From NCBI RefSeq assembly GCF_016903815.1, contig NZ_CP069973.1: a stretch of 64,000 bases of DNA. One strand, 5' to 3'. Made by a program: the position numbers and the translations under genes. The stretch's first letter is position 1, and every line of letters begins with the position of its first letter. Below the pieces are notes generated by a model that was not told where the DNA came from, did no database searches, and was given only the letters and a program-made list of their open reading frames with translations. Shown here one piece after another: positions 10,955 through 12,704 of this stretch. This stretch comes from Escherichia coli. GTDB taxonomy: Bacteria > Pseudomonadota > Gammaproteobacteria > Enterobacterales > Enterobacteriaceae.

Positions 10955-11436
10955 ATCCGGTGCGCCGTAAAACCCCGTCCTTCAGGGCGGGGATATAAGG
11001 CGCGGTTTTCCACCTGACCAGGTGTTTGCTGTTGTTCAATGTATTGGCGGATGACGGATATTGGCGCACCTCCGCAGCTACTGGCAAAATAGCCAGGACT
11101 CCACAAAACGCCTTTGTAGTAATACCTGACTGCAATATCTGGTCGATCTCGTCGCAGTCACCTACCCGATACGCCTTTGAGGCTGTTTACCAGACTGGAT
11201 ATCGCCAGTTTGGGAGGATAGTTAATTAACAAATGGACGTGATCTGGTTCGCCATCCATTTCAACCAGTTCAGCTTCAAAATCAGCACATACATCTGAAA
11301 AGTAAGTGCGTGGTTTTTCTGTCGCGTCATGGTCAAAAATCTGGCGTCGGTATTTGGGACAAAGACCAGGTGAACATGCATCAGGAAAACACAATGCCTT
11401 CCACGCCGGATATCGGTTTCTTTTTTCACAGACCAA
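10918..11436 (-). pseudogene. tnpA: IS200/IS605-family Y1 transposase TnpA, inactivated (in-frame TGA and anomalous N-terminal region)
   Basis: One frame reads ...CPKYRRQIF...DHVHLLINYPPKLAISSLVNSLKGVSGR-[TGA at 11158-11160]-LRRDRPDIAVRYYYKGVLWSPGYFASSCGGAPISVIRQYIEQQ...; HUH motif and C-terminal catalytic region present but split by one stop. Only TTG/GTG starts are available, and a neighbouring frame (RHCVFLMHVHLVF) suggests a further frameshift. Confidence 0.7.
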
Positions 11437-11451
11437 AATATAATTTGACCT

Positions 11452-12609
11452 GTGAAACGACGACAGGCATTTAAATTCCAGTTAAGACCCGGTGGTCAAC
11501 AGGAGCGTGAAATGAGGCGCTTCGCAGGCGCATGTCGTTTCGTTTTCAATCGTGCTCTGGCGCTTCAGAATGAGAATCATGAGGCCGGTAATAAATACAT
11601 CCCTTACGGGAAAATGGCTTCCTGGCTGGTTGAGTGGAAAAATGCCACTGAAACGCAATGGCTTAAAGATGCCCCGTCACAGCCATTGCAACAGTCACTG
11701 AAAGACCTTGAGCGGGCTTACAAAAACTTCTTCCAGAATCGGGCTGCTTTTCCCCGATTCAAAAAGCGGGGACAGAATGATGCATTCCGCTACCCGCAGG
11801 GCGTTAAGCTCGATCAGGAAAACAGCCGTATTTTTCTGCCGAAACTTGGCTGGATGCGCTACCGGAATAGCCGTCAGGTCACGGGAGTTGTGAAAAATGT
11901 CACTGTCAGCCAGTCCTGCGGTAAGTGGTACATCAGTATTCAGACCGAAAGTGAAGTATCCACTCCGGTTCACCCTTCAGCATCAATGGTCGGGCTGGAT
12001 GCTGGCGTGGCTAAACTCGCCACGCTGTCAGATGGCACAGTCTTTGAGCCTGTAAACAGTTTTCAGAAAAACCAGAAGACGCTGGCGAGACTTCAGCGAC
12101 AGTTAAGCCGCAAGGTCAAATTCAGCAACAACTGGCAGAAGCAGAAACGCAAAATACAGCGACTGCATTCCCGTATCGCAAATATCCGCAGGGACTACCT
12201 TCACAAAGTCACAACGACCGTCAGCAAAAACCACGCAATGATAGTCATTGAGGATTTGAAGGTCAGCAACATGTCAAAGTCAGCAGCGGGTACGGTCAGC
12301 CAGCCGGGGCGCAATGTCCGGGCAAAATCAGGTTTAAACCGTTCGATACTGGATCAGGGCTGGTATGAAATGCGCCGCCAGCTTGAGTACAAGCAGCTCT
12401 GGCGTGGCGGTCAGGTGCTTGCTGCTCCGCCAGCGTACACAAGCCAGCGTTGCGCGTGCTGTGGTCATACAGCGAAAGAAAATCGCCTGTCACAAAGTCA
12501 ATTCAGATGCCAGGTATGTGGATATACAGCGAACGCCGATGTAAATGGCGCTCGTAACATTTTAGCGGTGGGGCACGCCGTTCTTGCCTGTGGAGAGATG
12601 GTGCAGTGA
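11452..12609 (+). CDS. tnpB: IS605-family TnpB (OrfB), RuvC-like nuclease with C-terminal zinc finger; candidate RNA-guided (OMEGA) endonuclease
   Basis: 385-aa ORF from GTG; N-terminus [10 protein letters not shown]...[14 protein letters not shown] typical of TnpB; candidate RuvC motifs VGLDAGV, IVIEDL and [10 protein letters not shown], with CxxC...CxxC (CACCGH...CQVCGY) between them. Confidence 0.85.
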
Positions 12610-12704
12610 GGCCGCTCGTTGAAGCAGGAACCCACCGAAATGATTCAGGCGACAGCCTGAACGTAGCAGGGATCCACGTCCTTCAGGGCGTGGAGGATGT
12701 CAAT
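12460..12704 (+). ncRNA. predicted omega (right-end) guide RNA of TnpB, overlapping the tnpB 3' end and the right-end hairpin
   Basis: Inferred from the general architecture of IS200/IS605 TnpB loci, where the guide RNA scaffold comes from the tnpB 3' end plus right end; the only sequence support is the right-end hairpin at 12676-12695. Extent not determined. Confidence 0.3.

Follow-up and report, generated by a model that had tools for sequence, protein, structure and literature searches.

Within a window of 64,000 nucleotides of Escherichia coli DNA (that is, the whole stretch analysed here), two near-identical hairpins lie on either side of a tnpB gene. This arrangement raises the question of whether the hairpins are the sites that a single-strand transposase would recognise at the ends of a mobile element and, if so, where that element begins and ends, which strand it uses and whether the hairpins serve any other purpose. 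The structures concerned are the following.

10973-10992, + strand: left subterminal imperfect palindrome (IPL), CCCCGTCC-TTCA-GGGCGGGG (sequence search, folding).
12674-12693, + strand: right subterminal imperfect palindrome (IPR), CCACGTCC-TTCA-GGGCGTGG (sequence search, folding, covariation).

The left hairpin, CCCCGTCCTTCAGGGCGGGG (10973-10992, + strand), lies exactly where the earlier note had placed it, and the right hairpin, CCACGTCCTTCAGGGCGTGG (12674-12693, + strand), has the sequence given there at a position that had been put 2 nt too far to the right (12676-12695). The same note described an 8-bp stem with a ttca loop; the loop and the eight stem positions hold, and the stem itself consists of seven Watson-Crick pairs plus a T·G pair at 6:15 in each copy. 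The hairpins are indeed near-identical and in the same orientation on the + strand, starting 1701 nt apart and differing at 2 of 20 positions (3 and 18) in a compensatory manner (C-G versus A-T). When folded as single-stranded + strand DNA, both ends form the hairpin that had been described (-9.6 kcal/mol for the left and -7.7 kcal/mol for the right, with z = -1.8 and -2.2, respectively), whereas on the - strand 6:15 is a mismatched C·A and the prediction gives a broken stem.

Given that E. coli intergenic DNA commonly contains GC-rich hairpins, the pair could be viewed as a chance repeat or as a host repeat (REP/BIME-like) that is unrelated to any insertion sequence. A search of the 64-kb window with the pattern CCNCGTCCTTCAGGGCGNGG (up to three mismatches, with 100 shuffles as control) recovered two sites only, as against a shuffle expectation of 0.03, and none of the 100 shuffles reached at least two; the motif thus has no further match outside the element in this window. 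In a scan across species, 3:18 was Watson-Crick in 95 of 123 matches (about 25% by chance), and another 21 of the 123, from GC-rich genomes, lay inside apparent coding sequence with a non-complementary 3:18, as chance matches might. Both hairpins, moreover, accompany the element to every insertion site. On balance we regard an origin by chance or from a host repeat as extremely improbable, and a REP/BIME identity in particular was rejected on the absence of the motif from the rest of the window and from the empty yajI.

The limits of the element follow from its insertion site.

10957-12703, + strand: IS609 copy (IS200/IS605 family, IS605 group), 1747 bp (empty-site match, other copies, RefSeq/PGAP naming).
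10953-10956, + strand: TTAT target tetranucleotide, the left cleavage site (CL), which is host yajI DNA outside the IS (six insertion sites, empty yajI).
10547-10956, - strand: 3' part of yajI, a C-terminal fragment of a DUF3251 lipoprotein (ORF list, RefSeq annotation).
12704-12833, - strand: 5' part of yajI, an N-terminal fragment (ORF list, RefSeq annotation).

When rejoined, the flanks (10897-10956 and 12704-12763) match intact yajI of many E. coli genomes with 100% identity over 120 nt; this comparison revealed no target-site duplication at the yajI insertion, and TTAT is present in the uninterrupted alleles that match at 100%. An empty site in HH97 that reads TTGAT before TGAG (rather than TTTAT before TGAG) gave the appearance of a 3-nt loss, which we discarded as a yajI polymorphism, the TTTAT allele being found in many genomes. 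In all six independent insertion sites compared, the element follows TTAT directly and closes with GGAGGATGTCAA on the right, while the right flanks beyond 12703 are unlike one another (tgag, tatc, cata, gaca, gttg and caaa), and copies of IS609 at other loci align from the same ends as 10957 and 12703. The ends had previously been estimated at roughly 10955 and 12704, which is near but off by 2 nt and 1 nt. With the ends fixed by the empty site and by the six insertion sites, the left hairpin stands 16 nt and the right hairpin 10 nt from the nearer end of the element, in keeping with the proposal that they are subterminal palindromes of the IS200/IS605 type, and a repeat search of the element found no terminal inverted repeats.

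As for the identity of the element, its DNA is 97.5-98.6% identical, over the full length, to copies at ydcO, a TetR-family gene, yeaQ/yeaR, yfaV/yfaY and yedK, and RefSeq/PGAP labels such copies 'IS609 family transposase' or insQ, from which the name IS609 is taken here. Two further IS609-like places occur in the record NZ_CP023820.1. The whole window is 100% identical in E. coli strain 7/2, and the yajI insertion is common to about 340 of 5426 complete genomes, which fits a vertically inherited, immobile copy. The genes that the element carries are as follows.

11014-11444, - strand: tnpA (Y1 HUH transposase), pseudogene (comparison with the intact copy L005).
11452-12609, + strand: tnpB (insQ-like RNA-guided endonuclease), 385 aa (Pfam, comparison with other copies).

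Relative to the intact homologue in L005 (143 aa; Pfam Y1_Tnp, E=1.3e-41), tnpA has lost 1 nt near 11357 as well as its stop codon at 11016 and carries a nonsense change at 11159, and RefSeq annotates it as 'frameshifted; internal stop'; WP_000604942.1 is an example of an intact IS609 TnpA. The tnpB product contains OrfB_IS605 (PF01385, E=1.5e-34), Cas12f1-like_TNB (PF07282, E=1.8e-23) and HTH_OrfB_IS605 (PF12323, E=7.6e-14), and ends prematurely through a TCA-to-TGA change at 12608, the usual stop at 12658-12660 giving 402 aa. Since full-length TnpB (from L005) aligns to the ISDra2 TnpB structures 8bf8 and 8exa over residues 3-376 (E = 8e-55), the core of the protein is kept in the 385-aa version; a literature search on insQ/TnpB found no functional study of the protein.

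The earlier assignment to the IS605 family is thus borne out by the Y1_Tnp domain of tnpA (although a pseudogene here), by the three TnpB Pfam domains and by the 98%-identical copies labelled IS609. The traits of the IS605 group are found together at this locus, namely a Y1 TnpA gene, tnpB, subterminal hairpins, insertion 3' of TTAT without duplication, and complementarity between guides and cleavage sites (see below). We therefore hold with high confidence that the two hairpins are the IPL and IPR of the IS609 copy at 10957-12703 inside yajI. IS609 is an already known element, and the feature is an ordinary one that would not surprise a specialist; the literature that we found treats IS609 in genome surveys only, and our search found no study of the element ends. 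The value for annotation lies in the exact boundaries of the IS609 copy that disrupts yajI across a lineage of about 340 E. coli genomes, and in the identification of TTAT as the target and likely TAM of a copy with intact ends and a dead transposase gene.

If the ends work as in IS608, short guide sequences next to the hairpins would be expected to pair with the cleavage sites, and the corresponding segments can be placed as follows.

10969-10972, + strand: AAAA, left guide tetranucleotide (GL), abutting the left hairpin foot on its 5' side (by the position of GL in IS608).
12670-12673, + strand: GGAT, right guide tetranucleotide (GR), abutting the right hairpin foot on its 5' side (by GR of IS608 and relatives).
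12700-12703, + strand: TCAA, right cleavage site (CR), the last 4 nt of the element, ending 10 nt past the hairpin foot (copies, IS608).

In IS608, GL is AAAG and pairs with TTAC, 19 nt from IPL, and GR is GAAT, with the cleavage site TCAA 10 nt from IPR (PMC5934647, PMC3201880). The same kind of complementarity is seen here between guide AAAA and TTAT and between guide GGAT and TCAA, and all copies compared end in AGGATGTCAA followed by unrelated flanks. Relatives vary along the same lines: those in Klebsiella and Providencia have the right guide GAAT, and a Salmonella relative has the guide AAAG along with a flank ending in TTACC. Of 32 distinct hairpins of the right-end type from different taxa, 27 show complementarity between base -1 and base +10 (five of the 27 being G:C, with ends that read TCAC), compared with 3-8 of 32 at the control offsets +7, +8, +11 and +12. 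The matched change from TTAC/AAAG to TTAT/AAAA in IS609 confirms, on a small comparative scale, a mechanism that was already established.

Given these ends, the data support the + strand, which codes for tnpB, as the top (active) strand, as the earlier note had proposed from the sequence. We reach this view because the conserved TTAT lies only 5' of the left end, with unrelated flanks on the right, and because the wobbles, which have T in the 5' arm and G in the 3' arm, would be C·A on the other strand; in addition, TnpB is encoded on the strand of the hairpin in all 20 unrelated cross-taxon loci with a detectable TnpB. The opposite assignment, in which the bottom (- strand, tnpA-sense) strand is active and the left-end and right-end labels are to be swapped, can appeal to the coding of tnpA on the - strand and to the palindromic character of the hairpins, which suffices for folding on both strands. 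It is contradicted by the position of the conserved target (5' of 10957 on the + strand only, the right flanks differing at every site), by the mismatches that the wobbles would become, by the TCAA end and 10-nt spacing, which match the right end of IS608 (PMC3201880), and by the 20 cross-taxon loci, and we give it next to no credence. In six of eight windows the + strand shows a positive GC skew, and we therefore take this strand to be the lagging-strand template.

With the + strand as the top strand, transposition can be envisioned by analogy with IS608. A Y1 TnpA dimer would bind both hairpins on the single-stranded + strand (that is, the lagging-strand template), the guide tetranucleotides would present the cleavage sites to TnpA, and the top strand would be cut after TTAT and after TCAA to leave as a single-stranded circle, which would re-insert 3' of another TTAT; the donor joint after excision would read TTTAT followed directly by TGAGTTGCG. 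Having only a tnpA pseudogene, the yajI copy is unable to move on its own, yet both of its ends are intact, so that TnpA from another copy could in principle mobilise it. With tnpA dead, the hairpins of this copy may at present be unused relics. Other IS609 copies keep the left hairpin, as do relatives carried by plasmids in other genera, and several other E. coli copies (L003, L005 and L007) have unpaired substitutions in one hairpin, which we take as a sign of decay rather than of selection within E. coli.

The right end may have a further role at the level of RNA, for which two segments are predicted.

12524-12703, + strand: predicted omega/reRNA scaffold, overlapping the 3' end of tnpB and the right end, with 12524 as an approximate 5' limit (sub-threshold Rfam matches, consensus fold).
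12704-12719, + strand: predicted 16-nt guide segment of the omega RNA, TGAGTTGCGTCATCTC, in yajI DNA beyond the right end (from ISDra2).

Three Rfam families match here, HgcC (RF00062) at 12603-12716 with 24.9 bits against a gathering threshold of 50, RAGATH-18 (RF03064) at 12587-12630 with 29.5 against 44.9, and sot0042 (sotRNAs, RF02656) at 12656-12694 with 15.5 against 88; as the scores are under the gathering thresholds, we read them as resemblance to HgcC, RAGATH-18 and sotRNA, probably with a similar mode of action, and not as membership. A consensus fold of nine relatives contains six pairs with compensatory changes, and the single-sequence fold of the scaffold has z = -2.7. The literature connects these families with the 3' ends of tnpB, with guide RNAs and with a UUCA tetraloop (PMC4615843, PMC11061315, PMC8612924), the tetraloop having been described in right ends of the IS1341 type and in HgcC (PMC4615843), and RNAs derived from RAGATH-18 guide TnpBs (PMC11061315). 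In ISDra2, the reRNA comprises the 3' end of tnpB, the right end and some 16 nt of flanking DNA, and the transposase target is at once the TAM (PMC8612924). On this model, the TnpB omega RNA, which would run from the 3' end of tnpB across 12703 into the flank, probably has the right hairpin as its last (3'-terminal) stem, and TTAT is the predicted TAM for TnpB. As in ISDra2, the omega RNA would direct TnpB to the empty donor site next to TTAT for cleavage, and repair would restore the element.

Could the hairpins then act as RNA only, the right one as a stem of the omega RNA and the left one (on the - strand) as the tnpA terminator, with their resemblance unrelated to transposase recognition? 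The right end does match Rfam families of the omega-RNA type below threshold and shows stem covariation of the kind seen in RNA helices, and the left hairpin, read on the - strand, lies about 22 nt past the tnpA stop, with TTTTAC after it. However, a terminator scan did not call the left hairpin, which has only four T's and, on the - strand, the C·A mismatch, and the hairpin is kept in tnpA-less relatives on plasmids of Klebsiella, Enterobacter and Salmonella; on the scan and these relatives, we rejected termination of tnpA as its main role. The complementarity of guides and cleavage sites at both ends, a feature of DNA transposition, would also be left unexplained. We thus consider the RNA-only explanation very unlikely, in its exclusive version, given that an RNA role of the right hairpin is compatible with both hairpins being the palindromes of the IS609 ends.

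Beyond E. coli, the hairpin forms part of a shared module (GGAAT, an 8-bp GC stem with T·G wobbles in the 5' arm only, a UUCA loop, and AGGATGTCAA) that is nearly base-for-base alike in Actinobacteria, Burkholderiales, Bacteroidota, haloarchaea and methanogens. Among 14 hairpins picked without regard to their stem bases, 108 of 112 cells were paired (the shuffle maximum being 104), and all 11 wobbles had T in the 5' arm. Pattern-selected loci had suggested a left hairpin that is invariant across phyla and right hairpins that covary, a distinction that we withdrew when a base-unconstrained scan showed that left-end candidates vary, and the invariance of the left hairpin is therefore at least partly an artefact of ascertainment. 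When TnpB and TnpA were sought near the 123 cross-taxon hairpins by tblastn, motif regex and an iterated local HMM, genes were found within 1.2 kb of only 21 of the matches, 20 of which had a complementary or wobble 3:18; the other matches are at contig ends, gene-less, too divergent for detection or chance occurrences in GC-rich coding DNA. One speculative reading of the conservation, which we think unlikely, is a double constraint whereby the module has to serve TnpA as single-stranded DNA and TnpB as RNA, with the left-end copy also acting as RNA. If this were true, the left-end RNA might, for example, end tnpA transcripts or compete for TnpB, and the gene-less hairpin repeats, which are numerous in some MAGs of Bacteroidota, would represent elements that the module allows to be mobilised in trans.

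Among known systems, the closest comparison is with IS609 itself, of which the K-12 copy adjoins ydcO and encodes insQ. Copies elsewhere in E. coli share with the yajI copy the divergent layout of tnpA and tnpB, the ends and the TTAT target, whereas the yajI copy differs from them in its dead tnpA and in a tnpB that is 17 codons shorter; its hairpins are the majority version among the six insertion sites, some other copies having hairpin mutations. IS608 of Helicobacter pylori, the model element for the structure and biochemistry of TnpA, shares with IS609 the subterminal palindromes on the same strand, insertion 3' of a tetranucleotide without duplication, a right end with TCAA 10 nt after the hairpin, 4-nt guides and the 'AT' after the left hairpin. 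It differs in target (TTAC versus TTAT), left guide (AAAG versus AAAA) and left spacing (19 nt versus 16 nt), in having tnpA and tnpB in the same direction where those of IS609 are divergent, and in the sequence of its hairpins. ISDra2 of Deinococcus radiodurans, the model element for TnpB and its reRNA, which has TTGAT as both target and TAM where IS609 has TTAT, provides the guide-RNA layout predicted for IS609, the RNA and the cleavage activity having been demonstrated in ISDra2 and being presumed in IS609 from that likeness. At the level of RNA, the HgcC consensus segment CccCGcccUUuAgggCGggGAGGAGGUCA lines up with CCACGUCCUUCAGGGCGUGGAGGAUGUCA of the IS609 right end, although the elements on which HgcC, sotRNA and RAGATH-18 were defined are archaeal, IS1341-type or IS607 ones, unlike IS609.

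Within the gene order yajD-tsx-yajI-nrdR-ribD, in a region 100% identical to E. coli strain 7/2, yajI is interrupted by an element with a tnpA remnant (- strand) and tnpB (+ strand). The tnpB product has the Pfam domains OrfB_IS605, Cas12f1-like_TNB and HTH_OrfB_IS605, and in a sister copy, whose tnpA is intact, that gene has Y1_Tnp (Pfam). Copies 97.5–98.6% identical to the window element occupy other E. coli loci (beside ydcO, that is, the K-12 insQ position; inside a TetR-family gene; in the yeaR/yeaQ and yfaY/yfaV gaps; and beside yedK), some of which PGAP names 'IS200/IS605-like element IS609', and the same yajI insertion is present in ~340 of 5426 complete genomes. 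Judged from these sequences, the element is a known insertion sequence with a known mechanism, present here as a decayed copy, and the earlier proposal that a pair of hairpins marks both ends of an IS605-family element is supported.

At all six independent insertion sites examined, the element starts with CCGGTGCGCC directly after flanking TTAT and ends in GGAGGATGTCAA, followed by unrelated sequence. When joined, the flanks (10897–10956 and 12704–12763; 120 nt) match the uninterrupted yajI of many genomes with 100% identity. Given the six-site alignment and this match, the element therefore spans 10957–12703 (1747 bp), and its boundary can be placed unambiguously, since the left flank and the element end in different bases (T10956 and A12703); the earlier note, which had put the ends at roughly 10955 and 12704, was approximately right but 2 nt and 1 nt off. 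On this alignment evidence, TTAT belongs to the host DNA and no bases were duplicated or lost on insertion. At the insertion point (10953–10956), some yajI alleles have TTGAT (Gln codon, - strand) and others TTTAT (Lys). This is a yajI polymorphism: the empty-site allele of strain HH97 (L001) has TTGAT in place of TTTAT, and the TTAT target is found only in the TTTAT allele, in which the insertion sits.

The left hairpin CCCCGTCCTTCAGGGCGGGG lies at 10973–10992 (+ strand), exactly as first noted; the right hairpin CCACGTCCTTCAGGGCGTGG is also present, but at 12674–12693 (+ strand), shifted left by 2 nt from the 12676–12695 originally assigned to it. Each has seven Watson–Crick pairs, a T·G at positions 6:15 and a TTCA loop, and the two differ solely, and in a compensatory manner, at positions 3 and 18 (C-G in the left versus A-T in the right). 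Folded as single-stranded DNA, both + strand sequences form this stem-loop; the - strand has a C·A mismatch in place of the T·G, and its predicted stem is interrupted. A degenerate search of the 64-kb window (up to three mismatches) returned two matches, the hairpins themselves, against 0.03 expected, and the possibility, raised beforehand, that this genome frequently carries the motif away from IS elements did not hold for E. coli. Across the six insertion sites compared, the two hairpins of the window copy are the commonest version.

The suggestion that the + strand, which encodes tnpB, is the top strand is borne out by target side, wobble bias and TnpB orientation. A conserved target flanks just one side of the element, 5' of its left end (+ strand). 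Among 14 right-end hairpins chosen without any stem-base constraint, 108 of 112 stem cells are paired (1000 shuffles: mean 92.7, maximum 104) and all 11 wobbles pair a 5'-arm T with a 3'-arm G, which restricts the hairpin structure to one strand. TnpB lies on the hairpin's strand in 20 of the 20 unrelated loci with TnpB detectable near the same hairpin. The GC skew of the + strand is positive, which makes the top strand the template of lagging-strand synthesis, an orientation reported as preferred for the IS200/IS605 family.

Both end hairpins of the window copy are intact, and its genes carry the following lesions:
11014–11444, - strand: tnpA pseudogene (relative to an intact copy, 1-nt deletion near 11357, nonsense mutation at 11159, lost stop at 11016)
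12607–12609, + strand: premature tnpB stop TGA (TCA-to-TGA change at 12608, removing the last 17 of 402 codons)
Homology to the ISDra2 TnpB structure stops at residue 376, so the truncated product keeps the core. The window copy cannot move by itself; a second copy that provides TnpA could, in principle, mobilise it. Separately, an inverted repeat of 17 nt without spacer (11424–11457; TTTCACAGACCAAAATA / TAATTTGACCTGTGAAA; 82% complementary) stretches across the short region in which tnpA and tnpB start divergently and could be an operator or other regulatory site.

The tnpB 3' end and the right end have sub-threshold Rfam matches to HgcC (12603–12716), RAGATH-18 (12587–12630) and sot0042 (12656–12694), and the HgcC, RAGATH-18 and sot families are all linked to tnpB 3' ends and guide RNAs (PMC4615843, PMC11061315, PMC8612924). 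A UUCA tetraloop has been described for IS1341-type right ends and HgcC (PMC4615843), TnpBs are guided by RAGATH-18-derived RNAs (PMC11061315), and the ISDra2 reRNA (that is, the TnpB guide RNA) comprises the tnpB 3' end, the right end and ~16 nt of flank, the TAM being the transposase target (PMC8612924). When nine relatives are folded to a consensus, the right hairpin remains the last stem and compensatory changes occur in six pairs. Because of these matches, the family literature and the fold, we infer that 12674–12693 probably also serves as the terminal stem of a putative omega RNA with predicted guide TGAGTTGCGTCATCTC (12704–12719) and predicted TAM TTAT; the mutated tnpB base at 12608 falls within a predicted loop of this RNA. 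In the fold of 12524–12703 (alignment A2, columns 34–39 with 172–177), ACAUUU (~12557–12562) pairs with GGAUGU (12695–12700) directly 3' of the right hairpin; the pairing is conserved in 9/9 relatives, without covariation, and may or may not be a long-range omega RNA helix.

An exact hairpin scan of one genome per species found at least 120 loci across Bacteria and Archaea. Among the matches listed, position 3:18 is Watson–Crick in 95/123, and the contexts that could be assigned, for a minority of the hits, comprise left-end-like and right-end-like sites, gene-less repeats and some GC-rich coding DNA matched by chance. IS609-like plasmid elements without any tnpA occur in Salmonella (L009), Klebsiella quasipneumoniae (L012) and Enterobacter hormaechei (L014); their layout is IS1341-like, with the left hairpin just ~45–70 nt upstream of tnpB and A·G or T·T at 6:15 in place of T·G. 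Solitary right-end-like IS609-type fragments with no annotated tnpB (L016 1901–2032 on a Salmonella IncY plasmid; H77, H81 and H82 on E. coli plasmids) resemble right-end relics, the IncY plasmid fragment being flanked by repA and an annotated AAA family ATPase gene. Two Bacteroidetes MAGs, B16_G9 (L060–L070) and bin.444 (L074–L084), each carry exact CCCCGTCCTTCAGGGCGGGG on at least 11 contigs, with no TnpA or TnpB detectable near these hairpins; two same-orientation copies lie 43 nt apart in L060, and two copies lie 206 nt apart in L063. These repeats look like gene-less (PATE/MITE-like) derivatives. In an uncultured Sutterella MAG, six contigs (L052–L057) end ~46–105 nt from an identical right-end hairpin (GGGAAT-CCTCGTCC TTCA GGGCGAGG-AGGAAGT(C/T)AA), a pattern typical of a multi-copy IS breaking assembly.

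The IS608 transposase binds imperfect palindromes that lie subterminally on the top strand. It cuts 3' of TTAC (19 nt upstream of the left hairpin) and 3' of TCAA (10 nt downstream of the right one), and each cleavage site is recognised through base pairing with the tetranucleotide immediately 5' of the hairpin foot (AAAG left, GAAT right) (PMC3201880, PMC5934647). The left end of IS609 follows the same plan, with TTAT 16 nt before the hairpin and AAAA at its foot, and at the right end TCAA stops exactly 10 nt past the hairpin, with GGAT at the foot; the C-to-T change in the target from IS608 to IS609 is matched by G-to-A in the guide. The Salmonella plasmid relative (L009) has guide AAAG and a flank ending ...TTACC. 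Of 32 distinct right-end-type hairpins sampled across many taxa, 27 show complementarity between base +10 and the base directly 5' of the hairpin, including five G:C cases with ends TCAC instead of TCAA, compared with 3–8 at control offsets +7, +8, +11 and +12; the count at +9 (21/32) is inflated because a TCAA end has A at both +9 and +10. The pairing between guide and predicted cleavage site in these relatives supports an IS608-type plan for IS609.
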